NCBI RefSeq assembly: GCF_900104485.1
Contig: NZ_FMXQ01000004.1
Span: 355,898-387,897, forward strand
Source: Bauldia litoralis
GTDB lineage: Bacteria > Pseudomonadota > Alphaproteobacteria > Rhizobiales > Kaistiaceae
DNA length: 32,000 nt
Direction of reading: 5' to 3'
Part shown: positions 3 to 26,241 of the stretch, one piece after another
Layout of the letters: every line of letters starts with the position of its first letter
Position numbering within the stretch: the first letter of the stretch is position 1
Made by a program: the position numbers and the translations under genes
Notes under the pieces: model-generated
What the model was told of the DNA's origin: nothing
What the model saw: only the letters and a program-made list of their open reading frames with translations
Database searches by the model: none

Positions 3-1217
3 ATGCGCATTCCGTTCATCAACGGTCGTCCGACGGCGACGCCGGAGGAGACCAAGGCTTCGGCGACCGCCGGGCTGATCGCCTTCCAGACTCATGGCGC
101 GCCGGCCTGGACGCCGCGCGACTATGCGGCGCTGGCCCGCGAGGGCTATGCGAAGAACGCCATCGTCTACCGCTGCGTGCGGATGATCGCCGAGGCGGCG
201 GCCTCCGCGCCGTGGCTGCTCTATGAAGGGGCGGCCGAACTCGACGATCATCCGCTGCTGGCGCTGCTCGCCCGCCCCAACCGCCGCCAGGCCGGGCGCG
301 ACTTTCGCGAGACGCTGTTCGGCCACCTGCTGGTTTCCGGCAACGCCTATGTCGAGGCGGTCGTCGCGGAGCCCGACGGCTTTGGCGATGCCGGGGGGGC
401 GCCGCGCGAACTACACGCGCTGCGGCCGGACCGGATGAAGGTGGTGCCGGGGCCGGACGGCTGGCCGGTCGCCTTCGAATACACGGTCGGCGGACGGACG
501 GTGCGCTTCGCCGATCCGGGCGAGGGGCGGCTTTCGCCGGTCCTCCATCTGGCGCAGTTCCACCCGCTCAACGACCACTACGGTTTCGCGCCGATCGAGG
601 CGGCGGCGGTGGCGCTCGACATCCACAATGCGGCGGGGGCCTGGAACAAGGCGCTGCTCGACAACGCGGCCCGGCCCTCCGGCGCGCTGGTCTACCGGAC
701 CAGGGAAGGCGGCAACTTGTCGGCCGACCAGTATGAGCGGCTGAAGGCGGAACTCGAGACCGGTTTCTCCGGCGCCCGCAACGCCGGCCGGCCGCTGCTG
801 CTCGAGGGCGGACTCGACTGGAAGGCGCTGTCCCTGACGCCGAAGGACATGGACTTCCTCGCCGCCAAGAACGGCGCGGCGCGGGAGATCGCGCTGGCCT
901 TCGGCGTGCCGCCGATGCTGCTCGGCATTCCCGGCGACAACACCTATGCCAACTACAGGCAAGCCAACCTTGCCTTCTGGCGCCAGACCGTGCTGCCGCT
1001 CTGCGGCCGTCTGGCCGAGGCGCTGACCGCGTGGCTGGCGCCGGCCTATGGCGACGGGCTGCGCCTGTGGTTCGACGCCGACCAGATCGAGGCGCTGGCG
1101 AGCGAGCGCGAGGCGCTGTGGGGCCGGGTCGCGGCGGCGGACTTCCTGACCGTCAACGAGAAGCGCGCCGCGGTCGGCTATGGGCCGGTCGAGGACGGCG
1201 AGGGGATGGGCCGATAG
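3..1217 (+). CDS. Phage/GTA portal protein, HK97 family (RcGTA g3-like)
   Basis: 404-aa ORF. N-terminal KASATAGLIAF...APAWTPRDY and the FGVPPMLLG...NTYANYRQAN block resemble HK97-family portals. It is the first gene of a canonical head-tail order. ATG 3 is 2 nt from the window edge, so the true start could lie upstream. Confidence 0.9.
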   Translation: MRIPFINGRPTATPEETKASATAGLIAFQTHGAPAWTPRDYAALAREGYAKNAIVYRCVRMIAEAAASAPWLLYEGAAELDDHPLLALLARPNRRQAGRDFRETLFGHLLVSGNAYVEAVVAEPDGFGDAGGAPRELHALRPDRMKVVPGPDGWPVAFEYTVGGRTVRFADPGEGRLSPVLHLAQFHPLNDHYGFAPIEAAAVALDIHNAAGAWNKALLDNAARPSGALVYRTREGGNLSADQYERLKAELETGFSGARNAGRPLLLEGGLDWKALSLTPKDMDFLAAKNGAAREIALAFGVPPMLLGIPGDNTYANYRQANLAFWRQTVLPLCGRLAEALTAWLAPAYGDGLRLWFDADQIEALASEREALWGRVAAADFLTVNEKRAAVGYGPVEDGEGMGR

Positions 1218-1285
1218 CGCGAGCCTTGCCGGTCGGCGACGATGCCGAATGCCTGAACCGACGGAATGGAATCAGAGGGCAGCCC

Positions 1286-1474
1286 GTGGACGATGTGACT
1301 CAGGTTTTCGCCCAGCGCGGCGACCTCGCGCACCTGGCGCTGTTTCTCTGGGCGAGCGGGGCGAGCGGGCTGCTGGTCTGGACGCTGCGCGAACTGGCGG
1401 CCTCGAACCGCCGCTTCAACGACTTCGTCAACGAGATCTCGCGGTTGAATCGGTTCTTCAACGAGCGCGACTAA
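1286..1474 (+). CDS. Small hydrophobic protein in the g3.5 position of GTA clusters
   Basis: In-frame GTG 1286 lies 6 nt after AGAGGG. The 62-aa product (VDDVTQVFAQRGDLAHLALFLWASGASGLLVWTL...) has one predicted TM helix. It sits between portal and protease, as g3.5 does in RcGTA. The longer track ORF from 1031 overlaps the portal and is not credible. Confidence 0.45.
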   Translation: MDDVTQVFAQRGDLAHLALFLWASGASGLLVWTLRELAASNRRFNDFVNEISRLNRFFNERD

Positions 1475-1548
1475 GCGACTCGTCCTGCTTGCATTCTGCG
1501 CGCGGGGCGCGCCGGCGGGCCTGGCGCGAACCACCAAGGAGACGACCC

Positions 1549-1686
1549 ATGCGACGCATGCTGTCCCTGATCGGGGCGGGCGGCGGCCGGGACCACCGCG
1601 CCGTCTTCCACACCTTCGCCGAGGGCCTGGCGCGGGTCATCCGGCCGACCCGCACGACCGCGCGGGTGCGGGCGGTCGAGGGGTAG
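1549..1686 (+). CDS. Hypothetical 45-aa protein
   Basis: ATG 1549 lies 7 nt downstream of a consensus AAGGAG (1536-1541). No recognisable family. It lies in a gap otherwise filled with repeats. Confidence 0.3.
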   Translation: MRRMLSLIGAGGGRDHRAVFHTFAEGLARVIRPTRTTARVRAVEG

Positions 1687-1812
1687 GGCTGTCTGCTCTT
1701 CCTCCCCCAGGAATGGGGTGCCTGGCTCCTGCCTGATCCGGGGCCGGGGTGACGTCGCCAGGCGACGACGGCGGCGAGTCTCTCGCAGAATTGGCGCAGG
1801 CGCTCCCACCGC

Positions 1813-1970
1813 TATCCCTCCCCGAACCGGGGAGGGTGGCTGCGCGCGGCGAAGCCGTGCGCAGACGGGTGGGGTTCGTCCCAAACCGGCATTGCTCTTG
1901 CCGCGACGCGGAACCCCACCCACCACCGCTTCGCGGCGGTCCCCCCTCCCCGGTTCGGGGAGGGATCGCC
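1813..1970. repeat. Inverted pair of ~60-bp palindromic intergenic elements (family 1, core CCCTCCCCG-N3-CGGGGAGGG)
   Basis: Hairpin cores at 1816-1836 and 1944-1964. Copy 1912-1970 is the reverse complement of the 1813-1877 type. 55 nt of it (GAACCCCACCCACCACCGCTTCGCGGCGGTCCCCCCTCCCCGGTTCGGGGAGGGA) recur identically at 12853-12907. Confidence 0.85.
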
Positions 1971-2063
1971 ATGGCAGCGTCGCGATCAATCCTGACGCGG
2001 TCGCGCCTTTGCCGCGAGGCCGCAAGCCGGCAGCACCGACTTTCGTATCCAGGAGAAAGCCCC

Positions 2064-2588
2064 GTGACCGCAACCGAACGGAAATTCGCGCCGGCCGACC
2101 TCGCCGTCGAGGCCGACGGTACCTTTTCCGGCTATGCCAGCCTGTTCGGCAAGGCCGACCTCGGGCGCGACGTCGTGCTGCCCGGCGCCTTCCGCGCTTC
2201 GCTGGCGCGGCGCGGGCCGGCCGGCGTCAGGATGCTGTTCCAGCACGATCCCAACACGCCGATAGGCGTCTGGAAGACGATCGCCGAGGACGGCCGCGGC
2301 CTGCATGTCGCAGGGCAGCTCGCCGCCGGGGTGGCGAAGGCGCGGGAGGTGCTCGCCCTGATGCGGGCCGGGGCGCTGGACGGGTTGTCGATCGGCTACC
2401 GGACGGTGCGCGGCCGCACCGACGCCAAGACCGGCATCCGCAGCCTGATCGAGGTCGACCTGTGGGAGATCTCGGTGGTGACCTTCCCGATGCTGCCCGA
2501 GGCGCGGGTCGAGGCGGTGAAGAGCGACGACCGCGCCGCGCTGCTCGACGCGATACGCCGGGCAACGGTGGCGATGCGGGCGGGGTAG
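2064..2588 (+). CDS. HK97-family prohead (maturation) protease, RcGTA g4-like
   Basis: GTG 2064 follows AGGAGA (2051-2056). The 174-aa product has FSGYASLFG..D..RDVV.PGAF and MLFQHD..PIGVW motifs of HK97 prohead proteases. The upstream part of track ORF 1749.. only translates repeat elements. Confidence 0.9.
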   Translation: MTATERKFAPADLAVEADGTFSGYASLFGKADLGRDVVLPGAFRASLARRGPAGVRMLFQHDPNTPIGVWKTIAEDGRGLHVAGQLAAGVAKAREVLALMRAGALDGLSIGYRTVRGRTDAKTGIRSLIEVDLWEISVVTFPMLPEARVEAVKSDDRAALLDAIRRATVAMRAG

Positions 2589-2595
2589 GGGCGGC

Positions 2596-3273
2596 ATGAC
2601 AGAGGCGAGGACCGCCGAACGGATCGCGCTGATCGCCGCGATCCGCGCGGCGACGGCCGCGATGCTGCCCGACACAGCGGCGACACGGTTCCACAAGGCG
2701 ATGGACCGGCTCGGCCGCCTGCTGGCCGAGCGCGACCTCGAGCGGCGGTACAATCCGGACTGGGCGTCGCAACCGCGTGTCCCGAGCGGCAATCCCGGCG
2801 GTGGTCGATGGACGGATGGTGGTCCGTCGATCATCGGAGAGGAACTTAACCCGTCAGCGTTCGAGGAGCAGGTTTCGGACGAACCGATTGGCGAAGAGCC
2901 TCCAGGCGTTCCGACCGTGCGGCCGGAGAAGGCACGTCGACGCAACAGATACGTGAAAGAGATCGCCCGGTGGCTCCTGCGGGGCACGCGGGTCGGTGTT
3001 CGTCTTTCGCCAATCGGTCGGGCCTTGGACATATACGAGGCGGGGCTCTGGATTCACGACCATTGGTCCTTCATCGAGGCATACCAAGACGAGCCAAAGT
3101 CTCTGGGAGAACTACGTGCGGCTGCCTCTCAGCGGAGAAAGGGATACGATATCCATCATATTGTCGAACGAGCGTCGGCCCTTGAGGATGATTTCCCTTT
3201 GTCGCGAGTCGATGGCGCGGAGAACCTAGTGAGTATTCCGACTTTGAAGCATTGGGAACTCAATCGTTGGTAA
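2596..3273 (+). CDS. Modular protein with C-terminal HH...N...H (HNH/EndoVII AHH/GHH-like) domain; putative nuclease toxin, truncated by an in-frame TAA (frame continues to 3396)
   Basis: ATG 2596 is 8 nt after the protease stop. The N-terminal ~75 aa are host-like in GC, followed by a Gly/Pro junction RVPSGNPGGGRWTDGG and then a low-GC C-terminal part. Signature residues are DIHHIV (HH codons 3154-3159), AENLVSIP (Asn 3223-3225) and KHW (His 3250-3252). TAA at 3271-3273 is followed by 40 more open codons ending at TGA 3394-3396. Confidence 0.55.
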   Translation: MTEARTAERIALIAAIRAATAAMLPDTAATRFHKAMDRLGRLLAERDLERRYNPDWASQPRVPSGNPGGGRWTDGGPSIIGEELNPSAFEEQVSDEPIGEEPPGVPTVRPEKARRRNRYVKEIARWLLRGTRVGVRLSPIGRALDIYEAGLWIHDHWSFIEAYQDEPKSLGELRAAASQRRKGYDIHHIVERASALEDDFPLSRVDGAENLVSIPTLKHWELNRW

Positions 3274-3392
3274 GAAATGAAAAACCCAAACTTCGGCTGG
3301 CTGACGCCAAGGCAATATGCCCGGGGGAAGGATTGGCCCACGCGCCTTAGACTAGGACTGGATGGGCTGAGAGACATAGGAGTCCTTGAGCG

Positions 3393-3764
3393 ATGAGTGG
3401 GGCTAGTCTCGACAGGAGATCGATCGAGGAACTCGTCGACCGCTACGCCGCGACGGGTGTGGCGCAAGACGAGGCCGAACTCAATGACGACATCGGCAAA
3501 TACAACCGCCTCGTCGACGACATCATCGCCGTGGAAGCGGAGCTGAAATCGCGAGCTGGCGATCAGCGCACGGCACTAATGAAGCTGTACGACCACCCCA
3601 ACATGCAGGTCCGCCTAAATGCTGCGCACGCCACGCTTGCGGTCGCACCCGAGGCGGCCCGGGCGCTGCTGATGACCATCCGGGAGTCGCGGTGGATGCC
3701 TCAGGCCATGCAGGCCGGGATGTCCCTGCGGAACCTGGAGAACGGCGTCTATCGGCCGGATTGA
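3393..3764 (+). CDS. DUF2019-like all-helical small protein; candidate immunity/antitoxin partner
   Basis: 123-aa ORF. LYDHPNMQVRLNAAHATLAVAPEAARALL and PQAMQAGMSLRNLENGVYRPD match my memory of DUF2019 proteins (HEAT-like helices). ATG 3393-3395 overlaps TGA 3394-3396 of the extended upstream frame (ATGA junction). GC is lower than the flanks. Confidence 0.7.
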   Translation: MSGASLDRRSIEELVDRYAATGVAQDEAELNDDIGKYNRLVDDIIAVEAELKSRAGDQRTALMKLYDHPNMQVRLNAAHATLAVAPEAARALLMTIRESRWMPQAMQAGMSLRNLENGVYRPD

Positions 3765-3790
3765 GTGATCGAGGGTTTTCGAATTGGGTG

Positions 3791-4155
3791 GGGCGCTCGA
3801 CGGGTTGTCGATCGGCTACCGGACGGTGCGCGGCCGCACCGACGCCAAGACCGGCATCCGCAGCCTGATCGAGGTCGACCTGTGGGAGATCTCGGTGGTG
3901 ACCTTCCCGATGCTGCCCGAGGCGCGGATAGAGGCGGTGAAGAGCGGCGACCGCGCCGCGCTGCTCTCCGCGATCCGGCCGGAGACGGCGGGGATGCGGG
4001 TGGGCTAGGGGCGGCGGCATGACAGAGCGAGGACGCCGAACGGTCCGCGCTTATCGCCGCGATCCGCACGGTGACATGCGCGCATCCCGACCCTGAAGCA
4101 CTGGGAGCTTAACAGCTGGTATGAAAGGCGGAATGGAGACTATGACTGGCTGACG
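3791..4155 (+). pseudogene. Degenerate second cassette: duplicated protease 3' end plus frameshifted 5' end and 3' end of a sister toxin-like gene
   Basis: 3791-4070 aligns to 2371-2650 at an offset of 1420. 2379-2507 equals 3799-3927, with 129 of 129 identical. Identity then falls to about 83% (2521-2580), and indels follow the ATG (4019). 4093-4155 encodes LKHWELNSWYERRNGDYDWLTP, homologous to 3244-3310 of the intact copy. The middle of the gene is deleted. Confidence 0.85.
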
Positions 4156-4185
4156 CCTCTGCTGGCGCGCCCGAAGATCGGATTG

Positions 4186-4698
4186 TCACTTGGCAGGATG
4201 CTCGCGAGGCTGCTGCTCGCGCTCTTGCCGCAGCTCTTCCGTCACTTTGTCCGCCAGTCGCCACAGAACGCGGGCGAGACTTTCTGCAAGATCTATATAC
4301 GGGGCGATTATTTCGGGACTAAGAGGCGTGGCTTTGCCGTCAAAACGGTGCTTCCCTCGGAAGGTGACCACCTCAAAATTTCCATCTTTGTTGGTGCCTA
4401 TCACGCCATGCGCGAGGTCGTTGCGGAATGCCACAAGCCGGCCCGCTTCATTGGTGAGTTTCAAGGTGTCGGCGTATGCTTCCTTCGTCCAGTGCTTCTT
4501 GGCGAACGCATCAAGTAGTTCGAGTTTCGATCTCGCCTGCATGCCGCTGAGGACCACTTGCGCCTGAAAGCCGGATAGTGCCAGAGCGGCGGCGACGGCA
4601 GTATTGAGTGCCAGGTCGAAGCCTGAGAAGTTCAGAAACAGCGCGCCGACTTGATGGGCCATCGCAATCTTGATTTTTGGATCTGGTTCCTTGGGCAT
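4186..4698 (-). CDS. HEPN-motif protein (Rx4H: R-N-D-L-A-H-G), putative RNase toxin / abortive-infection-type effector
   Basis: 170-aa ORF on the minus strand, predicted all-helical. FRNDLAHG is encoded at 4408-4425 (reverse complement CGC AAC GAC CTC GCG CAT) and fits the canonical R-N-x-x-x-H HEPN active-site motif. GC is about 53-58%. No obvious MNT or antitoxin partner is adjacent. Confidence 0.6.
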   Translation of the reverse strand: MPKEPDPKIKIAMAHQVGALFLNFSGFDLALNTAVAAALALSGFQAQVVLSGMQARSKLELLDAFAKKHWTKEAYADTLKLTNEAGRLVAFRNDLAHGVIGTNKDGNFEVVTFRGKHRFDGKATPLSPEIIAPYIDLAESLARVLWRLADKVTEELRQEREQQPREHPAK

Positions 4699-4872
4699 GA
4701 CAAAGAAGCCTCAAAAAGATGACCTAGCCGAAGGGCGACGCATTGCCGAGCGCATGCATCAAGATGCCGCCCGACCCGCACCCCGGTAAGAACTCGTTAA
4801 CCAAAGGCAAGGTACCGAAGAAAGGCGACGACCGGGTTGAGGCCGGCCGCCGCCCCAAGAAGAAGTAGTTAC

Positions 4873-4983
4873 CTACTTCCTCTTAATGGTCTCGACGACA
4901 TGTGTGTTGGGTTTCCCCGTTGCCGTCTTGACCGTGGTGAAGCGACCGGTGACGGCGCTTCTCCCGATTTTGCTGGTGGCCAT
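4873..4983 (-). CDS. 36-aa basic mini-protein MATSKIGRSAVTGRFTTVKTATGKPNTHVVETIKRK
   Basis: Below the ORF-track length cut-off. ATG (reverse complement of CAT 4981-4983) lies 7 nt after a consensus AAGGAG (reverse complement of CTCCTT 4991-4996). The S-x-x-T/S-G-R-F-V/T pattern resembles a widespread family of tiny bacterial proteins of unknown function. It has the same orientation as the HEPN gene, 174 nt upstream of it. Confidence 0.45.
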   Translation of the reverse strand: MATSKIGRSAVTGRFTTVKTATGKPNTHVVETIKRK

Positions 4984-5197
4984 TGGATTACTCCTTTGTC
5001 ACCCGAGCGGATGGACCGCTCGCCCTGAGACGCCCCGTGCGCCTCCAGCCGTCAAGGGCGCGGGCGAACGCGAATCAGATCGCAGGTTGAGTATACCAAG
5101 TCAGGGCTTCTGGCGGTTGCGCCAGCGCATGAAGTGACGGGCCTTCTGGCGAAGTGTCTTAGGCTCCACCAATCCGCCGACAATTAGGAATAAATTC

Positions 5198-5228
5198 CTT
5201 GACAGCGTGACGCTGGTCTGGCAATCTT
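5198..5228 (+). promoter_or_regulatory. Sigma-70-like promoter candidate (CTTGACA-N17/18-CAATCT) with an AT-rich upstream tract
   Basis: CTTGAC at 5198-5203 matches the alphaproteobacterial -35 consensus. It is preceded by CAATTAGGAATAAATTC. The -10 (CAATCT 5222-5227) is weak. Confidence 0.3.
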
Positions 5229-5233
5229 TGGCT

Positions 5234-5326
5234 ATGGTCAGAGAGGTGCGGGTGCGGGGCCTACGCCTGACGATCGAACCCAAGTGATTCTGGAAATGCG
5301 GTCGGGTTTTGCCCGGCCGTTTTTTT
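5234..5326 (+). ncRNA. Candidate ~90-nt small RNA or leader bounded by the promoter-like site and an intrinsic terminator
   Basis: The predicted start is ~5233-5236 and the end is the T-run at 5326. There is no ORF with an SD inside. GTCAG (5237-5241) can pair with CTGAC (5266-5270). No match to any RNA family I recognise. Confidence 0.25.
5299..5326 (+). terminator. Rho-independent terminator
   Basis: CGGTCGGG (5299-5306), loop TTTTG, CCCGGCCG (5312-5319). This is an 8-bp stem with one G-U pair, followed by T7 (5320-5326). Confidence 0.6.
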
Positions 5327-5396
5327 GGCGGAGCGTGGGAGCGCGCCCTCCGTCGCCGCTTCGCGGCGCCACCCCCGATCAGGTCGAGGGCAGGCT

Positions 5397-5417
5397 CTCC
5401 CCCGCTTCGCAGGGGAG
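5397..5417. repeat. Palindromic element, family 3 (CTCCCC-CGCTTCGCA-GGGGAG)
   Basis: The reverse complement recurs at 11317-11341 (TCCTCCCCTGCGAAGCGGGGGAGGA). Confidence 0.6.
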
Positions 5418-5520
5418 GAGCCAGGAGGCGCCGTCGCGCATGCCAGGCCGGCGCACGGTCGCACCGCGGACCCGGCACCGCGAATACGAAAACATGACAC
5501 CACGAGAAAGGAACCACCGC

Positions 5521-6765
5521 ATGACGCATGCTCCCCAGCCTGCGCCGGAGGCCAAGGCGGCCGATGGCGAGATGACCAGTGCCTTCGAGACCTTCAACCG
5601 GACCTTCGCGGCGTTTCGCGCCGAGAATGACGACCGGCTCGAGCAGATCGAGCGCAAGCTTTCCGCCGACGTGGTGACGGTCGACAAGGTCGATCGCATC
5701 AACCGGGCGCTCGATGAGCAGAAGCGGGCTATGGACCAACTCGTCCTCAAGGGGCGGCGGCCGGCGCTGGAGACCGGCGGATCGCGGGTGGTGACCTCGC
5801 CGGAGCACAAGGCGGCCTTCGAGGCCTATGTGCGCGGCGGCAACGAGGAGGCGCTGCGCGGTTTCGAGCAGAAGGCGCTGGCGGTGGGTTCCGACGGCGG
5901 CTACGTCGTGCCGGAGGAGACCGAGCGCGAGATCGGCCGGCGGCTGGCGAGCGTCTCGCCGATCCGGGCGATCTCCGGCATCCGCCAGGTGTCGTCCAAC
6001 GTCTACAAGAAGCCCTTCGCCATCACCGGTGCGGCGACCGGCTGGGTCGGCGAGACCGCGGCGCGCACCGAGACGGCGGCGCCGACGCTGGCCGAACTCT
6101 CGTTCCCGGCGATGGAACTCTACGCCATGCCCGCGGCGACGGCGACGCTGCTCGACGACAGCGCCGTCGACATCGACGCCTGGATCGCCGACGAGGTCGA
6201 GACCGTCTTCGCCACGCAGGAAGGCACGGCCTTCGTCACCGGCGACGGCACCAACAAGCCGAAAGGGTTTCTCAGCTACACCACGGTGGCGGAAGCCTCC
6301 TGGGCCTGGGACAAGATCGGCTACCTGGTCACCGGCGTCTCCGGCGCCTTCGCCGCCTCCGACCCGTCGGACGAGCTGATCGACCTGGTCTATGCGCTGA
6401 AATCCGGCTACCGGCAGAACGCCCACTGGGTGATGAACCGCTCGACGCAAGGGGCGGTGCGCAAGCTCAAGGACGCCGACGGCAACTACATCTGGCAGCC
6501 CTCGGCGGTGGCCGGCGGCACGCCGACGCTGATGAACTTCCCCGTCGCCGAGTCGGAGGACATGCCGGACATCGGCGCCGACACGTTCGCCATCGCCTTC
6601 GGCGATTTCCGCCGCGGCTACCTGGTCGTCGACCGGGTCGGCGTGCGGGTGCTGCGCGATCCCTATTCCGCCAAGCCCTACGTCCTCTTCTACACGACCA
6701 AGCGGGTCGGCGGCGGCGTCCAGGATTTCGACGCCATCAAGCTCCTGAAATTCGGCACGTCCTGA
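5521..6765 (+). CDS. Major capsid protein, HK97 family (RcGTA g5-like)
   Basis: ATG 5521 follows AAAGGA (5507-5512); an in-frame ATG at 5494 is the alternative. The 414-aa product has an N-terminal coiled delta-domain-like region (FAAFRAENDDRLEQIERKLS) and blocks such as GGYVVPEE, TGWVGE and FVTGDGTNKPKGFL typical of HK97-fold capsids. Confidence 0.92.
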   Translation: MTHAPQPAPEAKAADGEMTSAFETFNRTFAAFRAENDDRLEQIERKLSADVVTVDKVDRINRALDEQKRAMDQLVLKGRRPALETGGSRVVTSPEHKAAFEAYVRGGNEEALRGFEQKALAVGSDGGYVVPEETEREIGRRLASVSPIRAISGIRQVSSNVYKKPFAITGAATGWVGETAARTETAAPTLAELSFPAMELYAMPAATATLLDDSAVDIDAWIADEVETVFATQEGTAFVTGDGTNKPKGFLSYTTVAEASWAWDKIGYLVTGVSGAFAASDPSDELIDLVYALKSGYRQNAHWVMNRSTQGAVRKLKDADGNYIWQPSAVAGGTPTLMNFPVAESEDMPDIGADTFAIAFGDFRRGYLVVDRVGVRVLRDPYSAKPYVLFYTTKRVGGGVQDFDAIKLLKFGTS

Positions 6766-6807
6766 GCCCCCGCGTCCCTCCCCAGGACACGTGCCGAACA
6801 GGGCGGT

Positions 6808-6826
6808 CCCGCTCGTGACGAGCGGG
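6808..6826 (+). terminator. Stem-loop downstream of the capsid gene (possible partial terminator)
   Basis: CCCGCTCG-TGA-CGAGCGGG, an 8-bp GC-rich stem with only a weak U-tract (TCTTT) 15 nt later. Confidence 0.3.
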
Positions 6827-7037
6827 CGGGGCCGCCTGACTCTTTGCCCGGTGGATGCGCGGTGCGTCCGTCGAGGCTCCGCTGCGCGGAGCACCTCCGG
6901 ATGGCGGGGGAGGTGCCTAGGACAGCGGTTGTCATGCTGAGGCGCGCGCTGGAGGCGCGCCTTGAAAACGCGCGGGACCGTGGCCACCGGCAGATCGCCG
7001 GCGGGGACGAGTCTCGCCGAAGACGCTCCCCACACAC

Positions 7038-7145
7038 CGTCATCCTCCGGCTTGACCGGAGGATCGGTCTTTACCCGGCGCTCCGCTCGATCTGCAGGCG
7101 CCGTGCCGGCGAACAGCGATCCTCCGGTCAAGCCGGAGGATGACG
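7038..7145. repeat. RIME/REP-like element, family 2: two 29-bp hairpins in inverted orientation
   Basis: CGTCATCCTCCGGCTTGACCGGAGGATCG (7038-7066) is the exact reverse complement of 7117-7145. Each arm is itself a hairpin. Confidence 0.85.
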
Positions 7146-7259
7146 GTTGAGTGGGTGATGGTGTCGCGTGCGCTGGATGGCGGCGCACAGGCTGGATCGC
7201 GGCAGCGGACCCTCCGGGCGGAACGCGCCCATCAATCGCAAAACGGGAAGGACCTCACC

Positions 7260-7835
7260 ATGACCGCAGCCCTGATCACCGGGCCGGCGCTGGAGCCGGT
7301 ATCGCTGGCCGACGTCAAGGCGCATCTGCGCATCGACGGCGGCGACGAGGATGCGCTGCTGACCGCGGCGATCGTCTCGGCCCGTGTTCATGTCGAAAGC
7401 GCGACGCGGCGGGTGCTGATCGAGCAGGGCTGGCGGATCTATTACGACGCCTGGCCGAGGCGGCGGATCGTCCGGCTGCCGGTGGCGCCGCTGATGTCGC
7501 TCGATGCGGTGACGATCTATGACGCGGCGGGCGACCCGCAGGTGGTCGATGCCGAGGATTACGAGGCCGATGTCGCCGCGTCGCCGGCGCGGCTGGTGCT
7601 GGCGGCCAATGCGCCGACGCCGGTCGGACGCGCGGTCAACGGCATCGAGATCGACGTCACCGCCGGCTATGGCGCGACCTCGGTCGACGTGCCGGCGGCG
7701 CTCCGCCAGGCGGTGCTGATGCTGGTGGCGCATTGGTATGAGCATCGCGGCGCGGTCGGCCACGACCTCGCCGTGCTGGTCGCGCCGCTCGGCTTCGAGG
7801 CGCTGATCGCGCCTTACCGGCTGCTGTCGCTGTGA
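7260..7835 (+). CDS. Head-tail connector/adaptor (gp6-like, RcGTA g6-like)
   Basis: ATG 7260 follows GGAAGGA. The 191-aa product has VSLADVKAHLRIDGGDEDALL at its N-terminus, typical of gp6-like head-tail connectors. Its position is right after the capsid gene. Confidence 0.85.
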   Translation: MTAALITGPALEPVSLADVKAHLRIDGGDEDALLTAAIVSARVHVESATRRVLIEQGWRIYYDAWPRRRIVRLPVAPLMSLDAVTIYDAAGDPQVVDAEDYEADVAASPARLVLAANAPTPVGRAVNGIEIDVTAGYGATSVDVPAALRQAVLMLVAHWYEHRGAVGHDLAVLVAPLGFEALIAPYRLLSL

Positions 7836-8167
7836 GCGCCCGGGACTTCGGCCCGGGGCGGCTGTGCCACCGCGTCGTCATCGAGTCGGCGGCCGGCGCG
7901 CCCGACGGGGCGGGCGGCGAGGCGGTGACCTGGGACACCTATGCCACGGTCTGGGCGCGGATCGCGCCGGTCTCGAGCGGCGAAAGGATCGTCGCGGGGC
8001 ACCTTTCCGGCGTCGTCACCCACACCGTCACCATGCGCTACCGCGACGACATCGCCGGCGGCATGCGCATCCTCTATCGCGGCCGCATCCTGCGGCTGCT
8101 GGCGGTCGGCGACCCGGACGAGACGCGGCGCTTCATCGTCGCCAAGGCCGAGGAGCAGGGACCATGA
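7832..8167 (+). CDS. Head closure / stopper protein (RcGTA g7-like)
   Basis: 111 aa. GTG 7832 overlaps the g6 stop (GTGA). The pattern WARI.P.SSGE...H.VTMRYR..I...MRILYRGR resembles phage head-closure proteins. Confidence 0.8.
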   Translation: MSARDFGPGRLCHRVVIESAAGAPDGAGGEAVTWDTYATVWARIAPVSSGERIVAGHLSGVVTHTVTMRYRDDIAGGMRILYRGRILRLLAVGDPDETRRFIVAKAEEQGP

Positions 8168-8322
8168 CCACGCTTGACCTGACCACCGCCGGCCTGATCC
8201 AGGCGCTGCGCCCGGCGACGGCTGCCGGCAAGCGGATGCGGCCGCCGGAGAAGATCCATCGCGCCGCGGTGCCTCTGCGCGAGACGGCGGCGGACAAGGT
8301 CGACATGCGGAGGGACCGATGA
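8164..8322 (+). CDS. Hypothetical 52-aa protein nested between g7-like and g8-like genes
   Basis: ATG 8164 overlaps the g7 stop (ATGA 8164-8167), and its own TGA 8320-8322 overlaps ATG 8319 of the next gene (ATGA). It exactly fills the gap between them. Confidence 0.4.
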   Translation: MTTLDLTTAGLIQALRPATAAGKRMRPPEKIHRAAVPLRETAADKVDMRRDR

Positions 8323-8723
8323 CCCATCCGGCGCTCGCGCTCCAGAAAGCGGTGTTCGCCGCGCTGGTTGCCGACGGCGACGTCGGCGCGGTGCTCGGCG
8401 ACCGGATCCACGATGCGCCGCCGCGCAACGCGACATTCCCCTATGCGAGCTTCGGCGAGGCGCGGGCGAGCGACTGGAGCACCGGCACCGAGGCCGGGAC
8501 CGAGCATCGCCTGACGCTGCAGGTCTGGTCGCGGGAGCGCGGCAAGGCCGAGTGCTGGCGGGCTCTCGAGGCGATCCGCGCCGCGCTCGACGACGCGGCG
8601 CTGACGCTCGACGGCCACGCGCTCGTCAACCTGCGCTTCGAGGCGGCCGAAACCCGGCGCGAGCGCGACGGCATCACCTGGCGCGGCGTCGCGCGATTTC
8701 GCGCGGTGACGGAGCCGGCGTGA
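8319..8723 (+). CDS. DUF3168-type tail terminator/completion protein (RcGTA g8-like)
   Basis: 134 aa. LQKAVFAAL..D..V.A.LGDRI.D..P....FPY and L.VWSRE resemble DUF3168 GTA proteins. The gene order fits. Confidence 0.8.
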   Translation: MTHPALALQKAVFAALVADGDVGAVLGDRIHDAPPRNATFPYASFGEARASDWSTGTEAGTEHRLTLQVWSRERGKAECWRALEAIRAALDDAALTLDGHALVNLRFEAAETRRERDGITWRGVARFRAVTEPA

Positions 8724-8774
8724 GGGGGGCGCCAAGCAAAGCCTCGCATCCATCGGTTGGGAAAGGACACTGCC

Positions 8775-9188
8775 ATGACAGCCCAGAAGGGGAAGGATCT
8801 GCTTCTCAAGATCGACACGACCGGCTCGGGGAGCTTTGCGACCGTCGCAGGCCTGCGGTCGCGGCAGATCGCCTTCAACGCCGAAAGCGTCGACGTGACC
8901 GACGCCGAGTCGGCCGGCCGCTGGCGCGAACTCTTGGAGGGGGCTGGCGTGAAGCGGGCGAGCCTCGGCGGCTCCGGCATCTTCAAGGACGCGGCGACCG
9001 ACGCGACCGTTCGCCAGGTCTTCTTCGACGGGACGATCCGCGACTGGCAGGTCATCGTGCCGGATTTCGGCACGCTGGAGGGGCCGTTCCAGATCACGGC
9101 GCTCGAATATTCCGGCGCGCATGACGGCGAACTCGCCTACGAGCTGGCGCTGGAATCGGCCGGCGCCATCGCCTTCACGGCGGCCTGA
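8775..9188 (+). CDS. Major tail (tube) protein, TP901-1-like (RcGTA g9-like)
   Basis: ATG 8775 lies 7 nt after GAAAGGA. The 137-aa product begins MTAQKGKDLLLKIDTTGSGSFATVAGLRS..., typical of GTA major tail proteins. Confidence 0.85.
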   Translation: MTAQKGKDLLLKIDTTGSGSFATVAGLRSRQIAFNAESVDVTDAESAGRWRELLEGAGVKRASLGGSGIFKDAATDATVRQVFFDGTIRDWQVIVPDFGTLEGPFQITALEYSGAHDGELAYELALESAGAIAFTAA

Positions 9189-9190
9189 CC

Positions 9191-9511
9191 ATGGTCAACC
9201 GCCAGCGCGGCGAAGTTGCCGCCACCCTCGACGGCCGGACCTGGACGCTCTGCCTGACGCTCGGTGCGCTGGCCGAGCTCGAGGCGGCGCTCGGCGCCTC
9301 CGACCTGATGGCCCTGGCGCGCCGCTTCGAGGCGGGGGAACTGGCGGCCGGCGACGCGATCAAGGTGATCGGCGCGGGGCTGCGCGGCGCGGGAAACGAT
9401 GTCGACGATGGGGCGGTGGCGCGAATGCGGGCCGAGGACGGGGCCGCGGGGTTCGTGGCGATCGTCGCGGAGTTGCTGACGGCGACATTTGGCGGCGGGG
9501 AGGCGGGGTGA
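9191..9511 (+). CDS. GTA tail assembly chaperone (g10-like)
   Basis: 106 aa. RGEVAATLDGRTWTLCLTLGALAELEAALG matches the 'gene transfer agent family protein' that follows the tube gene. Confidence 0.75.
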   Translation: MVNRQRGEVAATLDGRTWTLCLTLGALAELEAALGASDLMALARRFEAGELAAGDAIKVIGAGLRGAGNDVDDGAVARMRAEDGAAGFVAIVAELLTATFGGGEAG

Positions 9512-9655
9512 CTGCGGGTGGGTGCCTGGTGCGTGCTTCGAGGCCCGGCTTTACCGGGGACCTCAGCATGGCGGGGTGGTGGGATGGCTTCGAGCGGGTG
9601 GAGGGGTGGGAGCGCGTCGAGGCTGCGCGGTAAGCGGGTGTCCTCTTCACCGCTC

Positions 9656-9744
9656 GTTCCCGCGCAAGCGGGAATCCAGACGTTCATACGGGCGGCGCTG
9701 TCCGGCAGAAGAAGACTGGGTCCCCGCTTTCGCGGGGATGAGCG
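9656..9744. repeat. RIME/REP-like element, family 2 variant (GTTCCCGCGCAAGCGGGAATCC / GGGTCCCCGCTTTCGCGGGGATGAGCG)
   Basis: Two hairpins (9656-9677 and 9718-9744) in inverted orientation. They are of the same type as 12731-12832. Confidence 0.8.
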
Positions 9745-9785
9745 GGTGGAGGGGGGGAGCCGCGAGGCTGTTTGGGGAGGAAAAT

Positions 9786-9995
9786 TTGAAACCTGAGCGC
9801 GACACCTTTCCATGGTCGGCGATGATGGCGGTGGGGTTCGGGCGTCTGCGGCTTTCGAGCCGGGACTTCTGGGGGATGACGCCGCGCGAACTGGCGGCTG
9901 CCGTGGAAGGCGCTTTCGGCGTCGCTGATGCGCCGCCCGACCGGGCGATGCTCGAACGATTGATGGGACGATACCCGGATCGCACGCCGCCCTGA
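9786..9995 (+). CDS. Second tail chaperone (rcc01693 / g10.1-like)
   Basis: FPWSAMMAVGFGRLRLSSRDFWGMTPRELAAAVEG is the conserved core of this family. The start is uncertain: TTG 9786 after GGAGGA, or ATG 9822. Confidence 0.65.
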   Translation: MKPERDTFPWSAMMAVGFGRLRLSSRDFWGMTPRELAAAVEGAFGVADAPPDRAMLERLMGRYPDRTPP

Positions 9996-10097
9996 TCGTC
10001 ACGCCGATCGTCCGCGATTGGCGCGGCGCGCATCCACGGCGTGACGGCGCGGGCCGGTGGAGTGCGACTTGCGGATCCAGACAACGAGGCGAAACCG

Positions 10098-10649
10098 ATG
10101 CCGACATCCATCGAAGACCTGGCCGATGAGGCTGAAAGCCGGACGCAGCCGACGCTCGACGCGCTGGTGGCGCTGAGCCGGCAGGCGTCGACCTTCTCGA
10201 CGGCGATCACCGGCGCATTCAAGGCGGCGGTTGTCGGCGGCAGGCGGTTCGAGACCGTGCTCAATGCCCTGTCGCTGAAGCTGGCCGGCATTGCGCTCGA
10301 CCGGGCGCTGCAGCCGATCTCCAATGTCATCGGCAATGCGATCGGCAGCGCGTTTACCGGCATCGGGGGCGGTCCGCTCAAGCCGTTTGCGCGCGGCGGG
10401 ATCGTTGGCGCGCCGACCGTGTTCCCGATCCGCGGCAGCCTTGGGGTTGCAGGCGAGGCGGGCGCCGAGGCCGTGTTGCCGCTGGCACGCGGCAGCGACG
10501 GGCGGCTGGGCGTTGCCGGCGGCGGCGGGCAGCCGATGGTCGTCAATTTTCACGTCACGTCGCCGGACGCGGGCAGCTTCACGCGGTCCGAGGCGCAGGT
10601 GACGGCGATGCTCGCCCGCGCGGTCGGGCGCGGACGGAGAGGGCTGTGA
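10098..10649 (+). CDS. Short tape measure protein (RcGTA g11-like)
   Basis: ATG 10098. The 183-aa product has a helical N-terminal half followed by FARGGIV..PT.FP...GLGVAGEAGAEAVLPL, typical of GTA tape measures. Confidence 0.8.
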   Translation: MPTSIEDLADEAESRTQPTLDALVALSRQASTFSTAITGAFKAAVVGGRRFETVLNALSLKLAGIALDRALQPISNVIGNAIGSAFTGIGGGPLKPFARGGIVGAPTVFPIRGSLGVAGEAGAEAVLPLARGSDGRLGVAGGGGQPMVVNFHVTSPDAGSFTRSEAQVTAMLARAVGRGRRGL

Positions 10650-10650
10650 C

Positions 10651-11301
10651 ATGCCGGCGCTGACCGCCTTTCACGACGTGCGCTTCCCGACCGAGATCGC
10701 CTTCGGCTCGGCCGGCGGGCCGGAGCGGCTGACCGAGGTGGTGACGCTCGGCTCCGGTCACGAGGAGCGCAGCAGTCGCTGGGCGGATCCGCGCCGGCGC
10801 TACAACGCCGGCTATGGCATCCGCTCGATCGACGATCTGCACGCGGTCGTCGCCTTCTTCGAGGAGCGCCGCGGCCGGCTCTACGGTTTCCGCTGGCGCG
10901 ACCGGGTCGATTTCAGCTCGGCCGCGCCATCCGGTGCGGTGACGCCGACCGACCAGGTGATCGGCGTCGGCGACGGGGCGACGACGACGTTTCAGCTGGT
11001 GAAGACCTACGGTGCGCTGCATGCGCCGTATCGGCGGACCATCGCCAAGCCGGTTTCCGCCACGGTGCGGGTCGCTGTCGATTCGGCCGAGTTGGACGAG
11101 GGCGACGACTGGAGCTGCGACCTGACCACCGGGATCGTAACGTTCACGCCGGGGTCCGTGCCGGCCGTCGACGCGGCGGTCACCGCCGGCTTCGCCTTCG
11201 ACGTGCCGGTGCGCTTCGACACCGACCGGCTCGACATCAACCTGAGCAGTTTCGCCGCCGGCGACATCCCGACCATTCCGCTGGTCGAGATCCGGCTTTA
11301 G
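10651..11301 (+). CDS. DUF2460 distal tail protein (RcGTA g12-like)
   Basis: 216 aa. FHDVRFP..IAFGS.GGPER.TEVV.L.SG.EERN.RW is the DUF2460/TIGR02217 signature. ATG 10651 is 1 nt after the g11 stop. Confidence 0.85.
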   Translation: MPALTAFHDVRFPTEIAFGSAGGPERLTEVVTLGSGHEERSSRWADPRRRYNAGYGIRSIDDLHAVVAFFEERRGRLYGFRWRDRVDFSSAAPSGAVTPTDQVIGVGDGATTTFQLVKTYGALHAPYRRTIAKPVSATVRVAVDSAELDEGDDWSCDLTTGIVTFTPGSVPAVDAAVTAGFAFDVPVRFDTDRLDINLSSFAAGDIPTIPLVEIRL

Positions 11302-11304
11302 GGA

Positions 11305-11372
11305 GGCGGCATCTCGTCCTCCCCTGCGAAGCGGGGGAGGAGCGCGGCGAGACTGCTCTTGCGAGATGCCGC
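11305..11372. repeat. Compound stem-loop: outer 11-bp arms around a family-3 palindrome
   Basis: GCGGCATCTCG (11305-11315) pairs with CGAGATGCCGC (11362-11372). The inner hairpin is TCCTCCCC-TGCGAAGC-GGGGAGGA (11317-11341). Confidence 0.7.
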
Positions 11373-11399
11373 GCGATCGTCGCGCGTTGAGGGTTTGAG

Positions 11400-12290
11400 A
11401 TGAGACAGATCGACGAAGGGCTTGCCGCGCATATCGCCGGCGGGGTGACGACGCTCGCCCGCTGCTGGCGAGTGACGCGGAGCGACGGGGTGGTGCTCGG
11501 CTTCACCGATCACGACCGGACGCTGACCTTCGATGGCGTCGACCACGAGCCGGTTTCCGGCTTCGACGCCAGCGAGGATGTCGGCACGACCGGCTTTGCG
11601 GTCGGCGGCATGGAGGTCTCGGGCGCGTTGTCGTCCGAGCGGCTCGATGCAGCCGATCTCGCCGCCGGGCTCTACGACAATGCCGAGGTCAGGGTGACCC
11701 TGGTCAACTGGACGACGCCGGCCGAACGGCAGTTGCTGCGGGTCGGCCACCTGGGCGAGGTTTTGCGCGCCGACGGCGCCTTCACCGCCGAGGTGCGGGG
11801 GCTGGCGGCGCAACTCGACGAGACCCGGGGCCGGGCCTACCGGCCGACCTGCGACGCCGATCTCGGCGACGCGCGCTGCGGTGTCGGCCTGGGAAGCGGA
11901 ACCTATACCGGCAGCGGCGCGGCAACGTCGGTCAATGATCGCAGGCGTTTCGCCGTCAGCGGGCTCGGCGGATACGCGGAGGGCTGGTTTGATCGCGGCC
12001 GGCTGGTCTGGACGAGCGGCGACAATGCCGGGCGGGCAGCCGAGGTGCGCAGCCAGCGGGCAGTCAGTGGCGCGGTTGCCATCGAGCTGTGGCAGCCGAT
12101 GGCCCGCGACATCGCCATTGGCGACGGCTTCACGATCAGCGCCGGCTGCGACAAGCGCTTCGCCACCTGCCGCGCCAAGTTCGACAACACGATCAATTTC
12201 AGGGGCTTCCCGCATATGCCCGGCAACGACTTCACGCTCTCCTACGCCCGCCAGGGCGACGACAACGATGGCAAGGCAGTGGTCAAGTGA
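11400..12290 (+). CDS. DUF2163 tail hub protein (RcGTA g13-like)
   Basis: 296 aa. L..H.A.G.TTLA.CW...R.DG...GFTDHD..L.FDG is the DUF2163 N-terminus. The C-terminal NF.GFPH.PG motif is also present. Confidence 0.85.
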   Translation: MRQIDEGLAAHIAGGVTTLARCWRVTRSDGVVLGFTDHDRTLTFDGVDHEPVSGFDASEDVGTTGFAVGGMEVSGALSSERLDAADLAAGLYDNAEVRVTLVNWTTPAERQLLRVGHLGEVLRADGAFTAEVRGLAAQLDETRGRAYRPTCDADLGDARCGVGLGSGTYTGSGAATSVNDRRRFAVSGLGGYAEGWFDRGRLVWTSGDNAGRAAEVRSQRAVSGAVAIELWQPMARDIAIGDGFTISAGCDKRFATCRAKFDNTINFRGFPHMPGNDFTLSYARQGDDNDGKAVVK

Positions 12291-12718
12291 GCCGCGCCGC
12301 GATCGTCGCCGAAACGTTGACCTGGATCGGCACGCCGTATCGCCACCAGGCGTCGCTGAAGGGCGTTGGCTGCGATTGCCTCGGGCTGGTGCGCGGCGTG
12401 TGGCGGGCGTTCCACGGCGCGGAGCCGGAACCGATGGTCGCCTACACGCCCGACTGGGCGGAGGCGCGGGGCACCGAGACGCTGGCGGCCGCTGCCGGCC
12501 GGCACCTGACGCCGGTGGCGATCGACGCGGCGCGGGAAGGGGACGTCGTGCTCTTCCGCTGGCGCGCCAGCCTGCCGGCCAAGCACGCTGCGATCCTGAT
12601 ATCCGCTGATCGCATGGTCCACGCCCACCAGGGCGCTGCCGTGGCGACCGCGTCCTTCACGCCGTGGTGGCGGCGCCGGGCGGCGTTCGCTTTCGCGTTT
12701 CCGGGGGTGGATTCCTGA
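12287..12718 (+). CDS. NlpC/P60 family cell-wall peptidase (RcGTA g14-like)
   Basis: GTG 12287 overlaps the g13 stop (GTGA). The 143-aa product has WIGTPYRHQ....G.GCDCLGLVRGVW (catalytic Cys) and a later H.AI...... motif. Confidence 0.85.
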   Translation: MSRAAIVAETLTWIGTPYRHQASLKGVGCDCLGLVRGVWRAFHGAEPEPMVAYTPDWAEARGTETLAAAAGRHLTPVAIDAAREGDVVLFRWRASLPAKHAAILISADRMVHAHQGAAVATASFTPWWRRRAAFAFAFPGVDS

Positions 12719-12730
12719 CGCGCTCCGTAC

Positions 12731-12907
12731 CGTCATCCCGGCGAAAGCCGGGATCCATCGATGATCGTGTCGTCCGTGCGTCGTGTCGGGGGCTGCGGCG
12801 GTGACGGATTCCGGCTTTCGCCGGAATGACGGGGTTGATCTGACCACCGCCTGAACCCCACCCACCACCGCTTCGCGGCGGTCCCCCCTCCCCGGTTCGG
12901 GGAGGGA
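12731..12907. repeat. Cluster of intergenic palindromic elements: a family-2 hairpin pair plus a family-1 copy
   Basis: CGTCATCCCGGCGAAAGCCGGGATCC (12731-12756) and GGATTCCGGCTTTCGCCGGAATGACGG (12806-12832) are inverted copies with stem-preserving substitutions. 12853-12907 is identical over 55 nt to 1912-1966. Confidence 0.85.
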
Positions 12908-13049
12908 AGGGCGCGAGGTCGGCTGTTGGATCCTCATCGTTGGTCGCGGCGCAAGCGGCATGACTCGCCTTGATCGCCGGGCGGCGGGGCCACCGCGCGA
13001 GGCGGTCACGAGCACCAGTTTCGAGCCGATTTTTCGAAGGCAGGTTTCC

Positions 13050-18474: not shown

Positions 18475-18516
18475 TCCTCCGGGCAGATCCACCGATCCAT
18501 GAAGGAAGACCTCGCC

Positions 18517-23759: not shown

Positions 23760-23780
23760 GCGGCCGATGACGGAGCAGGC

Positions 23781-24242
23781 ATGACCCGGAAACAGCGACG
23801 ACTTTCGCTGATCGGCGTCGCCGGGGTGGTGCTGATCTGCGCCGCCGGACTGGTGCTCTACGCCATGTCCGATCGCATCGTCTTCTTCAGTTCGCCGAGC
23901 GATATCGCGGCGAGCACGACCGCGCCGGGGACGCGCCTGCGTCTCGGCGGGCTGGTCGCCGTCGGCAGCGTCGAGAAGACCACCGATGGCGGCGTCACCT
24001 TCGCGGTGACCGACGGCGCGGCGACGGTGCCGGTCGCCTATCGTGGCATCCTCCCCGACCTGTTCAGCGAGGGCGAGGGCGTGGTTGCCGAGGGGCTGGT
24101 TGGCAGCGACGGGGTTTTCGCCGCAGACTCCGTGCTGGCCAAGCACGACGAGCAATACATGCCGCGGGAAGTCGTCGACGCGCTGAAGGCGCAAGGCATG
24201 TGGCAGGAGGACGGTGCGCCGCCTCACGCGGTGGAGCAATAG
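23781..24242 (+). CDS. ccmE: Cytochrome c maturation haem chaperone CcmE (CycJ)
   Basis: N-terminal anchor, RLGGLV..GSV, and the haem-binding [11 protein letters not shown] motif. Confidence 0.92.
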
Positions 24243-24252
24243 GGTAGGGAGC

Positions 24253-26232: not shown

Positions 26233-26241
26233 GGAGGCCAA

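Follow-up and report, generated by a model that had tools for sequence, protein, structure and literature searches.

What is a segment of foreign composition doing in a gene transfer agent (GTA) cluster, in the space that separates its protease gene from its capsid gene? The question is raised by a stretch of 32,000 nucleotides of Bauldia litoralis (NCBI RefSeq assembly GCF_900104485.1, contig NZ_FMXQ01000004.1, positions 355,898 to 387,897 of the forward strand), hereafter the window, that begins in an RcGTA-type cluster. Polymorphic toxin/immunity cassettes, stacked one behind the other, make up the insert; they were recombined in via the protease gene and have since decayed, a single intact immunity gene being left. 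The explanation favoured here, with a probability of roughly 0.7, is that the stack grew at the protease gene's 3' end and that a copy of the cluster promoter accompanies it; much less surely, toxins of this family may be loaded into heads.

An accessory insert in the head operon

The start of the window is an RcGTA-type cluster, known here from its genes alone, with the order from portal to lysozyme by which, along with a lack of lysogeny and replication genes, such clusters are recognised: portal (3-1217), S78 protease, capsid, connector, head completion protein, gp17, tail tube, DUF2460, BR0599, NlpC/P60, a 1,331-aa GTA_TIM/Rcc01698_C protein, DUF2793 and lysozyme. All Pfam-supported genes of 3-19362 lie on the plus strand, and host two-component and ccm genes follow the cluster on its 3' side. 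The start of the protease gene (g4) is uncertain, the open reading frame (ORF) opening at 1749 and the Pfam match at about 2115; its stop codon occupies 2586-2588. From there to the ATG of the capsid gene (g5) at 5521 the distance is 2,932 bp. In 80 related RcGTA-type clusters, collected from public genomes with the capsid protein as query (best matches Bauldia spp., 74-81%), the median length of this gap is 96 bp, and 13 of the clusters have more than 600 bp there. These figures agree with an earlier reading of this DNA, the initial annotation, which held that the two genes abut in such clusters and lie 2.9 kb apart here. Its view of the insert as accessory also holds, since 67 of the 80 clusters have no insert at this junction and the composition of the segment is not host-like.

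The guanine plus cytosine (GC) content of 300-nt windows averages 0.684 (sd 0.04) over the whole window and reaches its minimum, 0.527, at 3001. Within the first 27 kb, all 300-nt windows of GC below 0.62 are confined to 2801-5350. The content drops from about 0.72 to 0.53 at 3001-3450 and to 0.56-0.60 at 4050-5250; between these two troughs it rebounds to 0.70 at 3751-4050, which is a duplicated protease 3' end. GC at third codon positions (GC3) is 0.90-0.94 in the portal, protease and capsid genes, 0.79 in the DUF2019 gene of the insert, 0.63 in its HEPN-like gene and 0.60 in the C-terminal part of its toxin gene. The low-GC islet that had been proposed from hand counts is thus present in the computed GC and GC3 profiles, and the hand-counted values (0.417, 0.533, 0.583 and 0.700) were exact. 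The features of the insert and of its two flanking genes are as follows.

2115-2588, plus strand: prohead protease (RcGTA g4, Peptidase_S78; PF04586 E 4.8e-34, TIGR01543 E 2.9e-34)
2370-2595, plus strand: repeat copy 1, protease gene 3' end, stop codon and spacer (226-nt direct repeat, 93% identical to 3790-4015)
2596-3396, plus strand: toxin gene of cassette 1, with leader, junction motif NPDWASQPRVPSGNPGGGRW (codons 53-72) and C-terminal 'GYDIHHIVE...N...H' domain
3393-3764, plus strand: DUF2019 gene, intact, putative immunity protein (PF09450 E 8.9e-35; PDB 2I9C E 1.5e-28)
3790-4015, plus strand: repeat copy 2, displaced duplicate of the protease 3' end with its stop at 4006-4008 (PF04586 E 1.4e-11 on the translation)
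4019-4157, plus strand: second toxin relic, frameshifted and with about 570 bp missing (from repeat analysis, sequence reading and translation)
4186-4698, minus strand: HEPN-like gene, 170 aa, with an RNDLAH (R-x4-H) motif (HEPN_MAE_28990, Pfam E 0.056, sub-threshold)
5185-5260, plus strand: candidate internal copy of the GTA-cluster promoter (GGAA-N5-TTCC, TTGACA as -35, palindrome CAGCGT-G-ACGCTG, weak -10)
5298-5330, plus strand: leader hairpin and T7 run, intrinsic-terminator-like (10 pairs, 7 of them G-C), 200 bp 5' of the capsid gene
5521-6765, plus strand: major capsid protein (RcGTA g5; PF05065 E 1.5e-91)

Two cassettes, both decayed

The two copies of the protease 3' end are not uniformly diverged. 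Fourteen of their 15 mismatches fall in the last 88 nt, within 2508-2585, and one in the first 138 nt, a clustering that puts the boundary of recombination near 2508. A direct repeat of a gene end flanking a foreign segment, with the gene itself kept intact, is also what a small site-specific integrative element would leave, the two protease 3' ends being its attL and attR and one of them a replacement gene end. This reading was rejected as very improbable. No integrase or recombinase gene is found in or near the insert and no tRNA; a 226-nt repeat diverged in its 3' third has the look of a tract of homologous recombination and not of a short att core; and merely one toxin/immunity pair lies between the repeats.

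The toxin gene of the first cassette is interrupted by an in-frame TAA (3271-3273). Tyrosine or phenylalanine stands at this position in the homologues (225-265 aa; 47 compared), which read through it, and the 98%-identical metagenomic locus L095 has TAC. The gene is a nonsense mutant (TAC>TAA) without the last 41 conserved residues. Its original stop, TGA at 3394-3396, overlaps the ATG of the DUF2019 gene in an arrangement of translational coupling. Locus L095 has a lesion of another kind: its toxin C-terminus is intact and ATT replaces ATG at the counterpart of window position 2596 (1160-1230 in that locus), so that the two alleles carry different lesions.

The second copy is a relic in which an N-terminal piece (4025-4086, matching 2604-2665) is fused to a C-terminal piece (4084-4157, matching 3235-3308). 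Toxin homology ends at 4157, and the low-GC segment continues beyond.

The first 22 residues of the toxin resemble the C-terminal tail of the protease (10 of 20 identical; 74% over 62 nt). This mimicry could conceivably make of the leader a capsid-targeting peptide; we go no further, since it is limited to cassettes that follow the protease and since L095 starts on ATT.

The putative toxin family and its DUF2019 partner

The family is small, 48 proteins being recovered by word-indexed search. The window protein has no match in Pfam, NCBIfam, PHROGs or PADLOC, and tblastn against 50,697 deposited phage genomes returned nothing. In the AlphaFold2 (AF2) model, the C-terminal 115 residues or so are predicted with a local confidence score (pLDDT) above 95 and the surroundings of the motif are disordered. 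Across the family H166 and N188 are invariant, and D163, H165, E169 and H197 nearly so. The predicted topology of the C-terminal domain is a strand (GYDIH), a strand (NLVSI) and a helix (TLKHWEL), on which D-x-H-H-x-x-E, N and H fall in turn, as in His-Me (HNH) nucleases. The top Foldseek matches are enriched in His-Me nucleases (SspE-CTD, Cap5, SciA, Cas9), none of them significant (E 1.6-8). From its modelled fold and conserved residues, the domain is likely a His-Me-finger nuclease.

A conserved N-terminal module and the motif NPxQPRVPxGxPxGGxW are common to all members, and the C-terminal domains differ. The N-terminal profile returned only proteins below 105 aa in the word-indexed search, and the C-terminal diversity was therefore taken from the collected loci and from a library of representative proteins. 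In Nitrobacter GTA clusters the module is joined to PF18431, the CdiA-CT RNase A domain, with E-values of 2.7e-13 and 1.8e-14, above the cut-off; elsewhere it is joined to a weakly matching SLT-like domain or to several unknown domains. The downstream gene varies along with them: behind the RNase A type lies another small ORF, of 79 aa, and behind other C-terminal domains stand members of a 158-aa family. Neither the window protein nor 42 homologues matched MuF (PF04233, PF06152), and Pfam-type scans of the window protein and its homologues found no known trafficking domain in the N-terminus. Three hallmarks of polymorphic toxins are present: swapped C-terminal domains, a varying small downstream gene and orphan modules.

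The gene that follows the toxin in the window is a clear member of DUF2019, scoring 119 bits for a cut-off of 23.3 and covering 104 of the 105 profile positions. In every locus examined, a toxin of the HHIVE type has a DUF2019 gene directly 3' of it, often with overlapping stop and start codons. DUF2019 likely neutralises the toxin as its immunity protein. The window protein also matches 2I9C, a solved structure of unknown function, to which partnership with a toxin would give a role. Both the putative toxin domain and its pairing with DUF2019 were previously undescribed.

The place of the cassettes in the head and packaging module, together with a nuclease-like predicted fold, might instead point to a helper of GTA production, i.e. 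a nuclease acting inside the producer cell, for instance by cutting host DNA for packaging, with DUF2019 as its regulator. Such a role is scarcely credible for a gene whose g4-g5 insert is missing from 67 of 80 related clusters and whose C-terminal domain gives way elsewhere to an RNase A type or to other domains. The decay of the toxin copies and the persistence of the partner gene are moreover the pattern of a conflict system.

Of the conflict-type content that the initial annotation listed, the modular toxin-like gene, the small helical partner (DUF2019), the degenerate sister cassette and the promoter/terminator unit were all recovered. Its alternative of a defence or toxin islet can be settled in favour of toxin, as a polymorphic cassette stack; for defence, no PADLOC match was obtained with four islet proteins at E <= 0.1.

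Recurrence in head modules and fusions to the portal

Homologues sampled regardless of context lie in GTA head modules in eight of ten cases: after the terminase (L083, L089, L092), after the portal (L090, L002) or after the protease (the window, L001, L087). In a set of loci anchored on the capsid gene, a cassette also follows the capsid (L051, L052, L060, L069, L072, L077, L079). A search of 93 sequences with a regular expression for the junction motif yielded 22 ORFs, every one of them on the strand of the GTA genes. When the 190 ORFs of enlarged head-module gaps are grouped into families, the toxin family (16) and DUF2019 (12) come out largest. In IMG/VR the toxin occurs in 36 loci, about 11 of them RcGTA-like; in the others it follows a PF04860 portal, a head protease or the recurrent phage protein phrog_13692.

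The cassettes are also tied to the structural gene in front of them. Portal 3' ends are duplicated in L004, L009, L046, L104 (nine fragments) and L130, and protease ends in L052 and L109. Orphan modules that carry a fragment of the upstream gene were found in the window (3790-4157) and in L004, L009, L046, L052, L103, L104, L109, L120, L127 and L130. In L009 the portal ORF itself runs in frame through the motif into the toxin domain, and the metagenomic sequences P0134, P0148 and P0154 have the same fusion; the orphan copy of L009 also keeps the portal end in frame. The L009 fusion spans 5519-7435, and its orphan cassettes at 7914-8198 and 8566-8727 each have a portal 3' fragment. In L104, the nine portal fragments lie around cassettes over 3987-9570.

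An ordinary toxin-antitoxin (TA) or defence islet, landed by chance in a tolerant intergenic site like a moron and without a functional tie to the GTA, would have the foreign composition of the insert. Unrelated genes (trypsin-like protease, aldo-keto reductase, MarR) do occupy head-module gaps, and two of the ten homologues lie outside GTAs. Chance is nonetheless an improbable explanation for eight of ten unbiased contexts in GTA head modules, for an orientation that is always that of the GTA genes, for portal fusions and for cassettes that each have their own tail of the upstream structural gene. PADLOC gave no match, and the order of toxin then immunity gene with variable C-terminal domains fits polymorphic toxins and not type II TA systems. 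The description of the GTA operon as a landing pad for the islet accordingly needs amending: the insert is accessory and foreign, but the site is not a chance one, since the same toxin family occupies four head-gene junctions and is fused to portals.

The L091 homologue, one of those outside GTAs, is a toxin/DUF2019 pair (7001-7877) directly 5' of ccmI/E/F/H, the neighbourhood that flanks the GTA in the window (22638-26703). This pair may be all that is left of a deleted GTA cluster.

Other genes recur at these junctions. A minus-strand gene for a trypsin-like serine protease lies in the capsid-connector gap of L061, L068, L069, L077, L083 and L087, and the terminase-portal gap of Rhizobiaceae clusters repeatedly holds genes of an 8-member family of unknown function. 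Inserts are frequent at every head junction in the loci L003-L082. Of 67 terminase-portal gaps, 26 are longer than 600 bp; portal and protease lie more than 1.5 kb apart in 13 of 73 loci, and capsid and connector more than 600 bp apart in 15 of 79. In Hyphomicrobiales, interruptions of the 'compact' GTA head operon are common.

The junction motif

When the profile of the N-terminal module was run against 1.84 billion representative proteins, 5,724 matches were obtained at E <= 0.001. The best are proteins of 1,000-4,000 aa in which 3-11 copies of K[FY][DN]PxQPRxPxGxPxGGQW[TR] stand between domains, among them ART-PolyVal, Acb1 (anti-CBASS), GNAT, NUDIX, ADP-ribosyl exotoxin, Zeta toxin, ParB_N and topoisomerase IB. 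Large phage-type effectors with the motif occur among P0167-P0302, e.g. P0170, P0172 and P0241. The motif is thus shared by thousands of phage effector polyproteins, and a substring search of the literature found no description of it. By analogy with these proteins, where a disordered motif splits the domains, its position here between portal or leader and toxin is most naturally read as a processing or loading junction. If so, phage polyvalent effector proteins in general would use it as their signal for processing or loading. Portal fusions and a motif common to polyvalent proteins are both suggestive of loading into the head.

Another fate of the toxin is conceivable. It could be a bacteriocin-like protein, co-expressed with the GTA in the lysing minority of cells, freed to the medium and entering neighbours unaided, with DUF2019 protecting kin and no packaging at all. 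Colicins have the same toxin/immunity logic. At all junctions the toxin gene has the orientation of the GTA genes and is closely coupled to them, and some cassettes follow the terminase, which is absent from the particle. A freely released toxin is nevertheless unlikely: the proteins have just 170-330 aa, are disordered around the motif and show no domain recognisable as serving receptor binding or translocation; in-frame fusion to the C-terminus of the portal makes no sense for it; and the motif is common to multi-domain phage effector proteins.

A probable internal copy of the GTA-cluster promoter

Just 5' of the capsid gene lies an element that fits the promoter conserved at the head of related GTA clusters. 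Its pattern occurs once in the window and in none of 100 shuffles. In 28 related loci the core was found once per locus, always on the GTA strand and usually 0.5-1 kb 5' of the terminase gene. A scan for the sigma-70 consensus detected no promoter, and the element is recognised through its conservation across loci. The hairpin and T-run behind it have comparable counterparts 60-110 nt 3' of the promoter in L046, L002, L056 and L012. Extra internal copies of the promoter lie 3' of inserts in four other loci: before the capsid in L001, before both portal and capsid in L046, before the portal in L004 and before the protease in L003. A reading of 5230-5330 as a small RNA or as a tRNA-type attachment site was dropped after a permissive Rfam search gave only a chance miRNA match and ARAGORN no tRNA.

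In Caulobacter, the antiterminator GafZ loads on a GTA promoter at a palindrome between -35 and -10, and transcription of the GTA cluster needs read-through of terminators (PMC11150451). To judge from its sequence, the element of the window resembles the GafYZ/GafA promoter of Caulobacter crescentus (PMC11150451) in its -35, its palindrome between -35 and -10 and its downstream terminator, and in being kept at the head of the cluster in many relatives. It differs in the palindrome, which is GCGCCCG-CTGGCGC in Caulobacter and CAGCGT-G-ACGCTG here, and in having its second copy inside the cluster, 3' of an insert. The segment 5185-5330 is likely a duplicate of the GTA promoter with its leader, through which the capsid and tail genes would stay under GTA control in spite of the insert. 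Interrupted GTA operons thus appear to be repaired by a copy of their own promoter placed 3' of the insert. The suggestion that the islet could affect GTA expression is thereby answered in part, a promoter and leader terminator copy sitting 5' of the capsid gene.

The HEPN-like gene and other features of the window

The HEPN-like gene had been counted among the conflict genes. Its support is the R-x4-H motif and a weak match to HEPN_MAE_28990 (14.1 bits for a cut-off of 26.8); Pfam, NCBIfam, PHROGs and PADLOC gave nothing past it. The product is 100% identical to a Bauldia litoralis protein, which carries the name HEPN in UniRef. The gene is rare, with a single other homologue (71%) among 5.8 billion proteins. 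It is the sole minus-strand ORF with homologue support in the first 19 kb, in line with the initial annotation, which had placed the only minus-strand genes of that region in the insert. Neither candidate for the mini-ORF that had been listed as part of the islet, 4886-5137 (83 aa) or 4743-4868, has support in any library. In L093 the single other homologue of the HEPN-like gene (8001-8735) stands directly 5' of a GTA promoter element, in a relative orientation opposite to that of the window (4186-5260). Their proximity in both loci hints that gene and promoter travelled as one or have a functional connection.

The space from portal to protease holds a small conserved ORF (1290-1474; ..RGDLAHLALFLWASGASGLLVW..RRFNDFV..) at the place of RcGTA g3.5; it is kept in L004 and L009 even with toxin cassettes inserted 5' of it. 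Long imperfect palindromes occur before the protease (1786-1839 / 1941-1994; 54 nt, 78% complementarity) and between capsid and connector (7036-7071 / 7112-7147; 36 nt, 94% complementarity). The latter contains TCCTCCGG...CCGGAGGA, which is also found 3' of the promoter copy in L004, and may be a repeat of the repetitive extragenic palindrome (REP) or miniature inverted-repeat transposable element (MITE) kind, or an extra terminator for an antitermination system. Outside the GTA cluster, short patches of GC below 0.62 lie at 27201-27650 and 29051-29450, close to a histidine kinase gene.

Formation and possible function of the insert

The favoured course of events is the following. Each cassette would bring its own version of the last 25 or so protease codons, a toxin gene and a DUF2019 immunity gene. 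The newer one (2508-3789) would have recombined in through homology with the protease gene, so that the previous cassette, together with its protease tail, moved downstream to 3790-4157. The toxin gene of that older cassette then lost about 570 bp and its reading frame, and the newer one has been disabled by TAC>TAA, the immunity gene alone still looking functional. The low-GC segment 4158-5184 with its opposite-strand HEPN-like gene would be a further addition. The promoter and terminator copy at 5185-5330 would restart the activator- and antiterminator-dependent transcription of the capsid and tail genes.

The toxin would be co-expressed with the head genes. We tentatively propose that RcGTA-type GTAs and related phage heads act as delivery vehicles, a toxin tethered or loaded beside the portal or the protease by way of the QPRVPxGxPxGGxW junction being freed in the head and injected along with the DNA. 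With similar reserve, intact members of the family may be enclosed in GTA heads and delivered to recipients, of which kin with the matching immunity gene would survive, so that exchange would be conditional on immunity. GTAs are usually seen as altruistic devices for sharing DNA, and the reason for their upkeep is debated. A toxin/immunity system in the head genes, with portal fusions, would add kin discrimination or a weapon to their functions. Were this true, GTA exchange would be policed by compatibility, kin receiving DNA and non-kin a nuclease or an RNase.

Several observations weigh against this explanation or parts of it. Both toxin copies of the window are dead, and nothing here need work now. 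The leader of L095 starts on ATT and not ATG, which suggests that the protease-tail-like leader may be dispensable. The nuclease assignment met no Pfam HNH family match and an empty PDB profile search. Two of the ten sampled homologues are outside any GTA (L085/L086 and L091), and some cassettes follow the gene of the terminase, a non-virion protein. As to the promoter, the -10 hexamer of the window copy, CAATCT, is weaker than in most copies, and the cluster's own upstream promoter lies outside the window and so was not part of the comparison. At the Bauldia litoralis locus, with its toxins dead, the local biology is probably confined to retained immunity and maintained GTA expression.

Comparison with known systems

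No description of GTAs with polymorphic toxins or immunity proteins was found in the literature searched, and the impression of the initial annotation that such an islet had not been described stands. Among described systems the nearest are the MuF toxins of temperate phages and the orphan arrays of CdiA and Rhs, with which the cassettes share their logic.

CdiA and Rhs proteins have demarcation motifs (VENN in CdiA, PxxxxDPxGL in Rhs) behind which C-terminal toxin (CT)/immunity modules are swappable, and their decaying orphans carry a fragment of the upstream gene. The GTA cassettes likewise have a conserved upstream part ending in a motif, swappable modules and decayed orphans, and one of their C-terminal domains is the CdiA-CT RNase A domain (PF18431). 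Here, however, the upstream homology is to a phage or GTA structural gene, protease or portal, instead of a secreted filament or a type VI secretion-linked shell, and the proteins are small and associated with no secretion system.

MuF toxins (Zhang et al. 2012, PMC3482391; Jamet et al. 2017, PMC5576092) are encoded with their immunity genes in the head-morphogenesis module by the portal, have variable C-terminal toxic domains and have been suggested to travel inside the head, from which they would be injected together with the DNA, as is proposed for the present toxins. In contrast, the cassettes described here have no MuF domain, their carrier being a short leader with the QPRVPxGxPxGGxW motif or the portal itself. 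Their hosts are RcGTA-type GTAs, which appear in neither PMC5576092 nor PMC3482391, and they occupy four junctions.

Polyvalent proteins were proposed to be packed in phage heads or transferred with the DNA (Iyer et al. 2017, PMC5512222). They share with the present toxins the motif that separates effector domains and the proposed travel with DNA into a recipient (PMC5512222). Polyvalent proteins are giant single polypeptides with many anti-defence domains and no immunity gene, whereas the GTA toxins combine one motif, one putative toxic domain and a cognate immunity gene.

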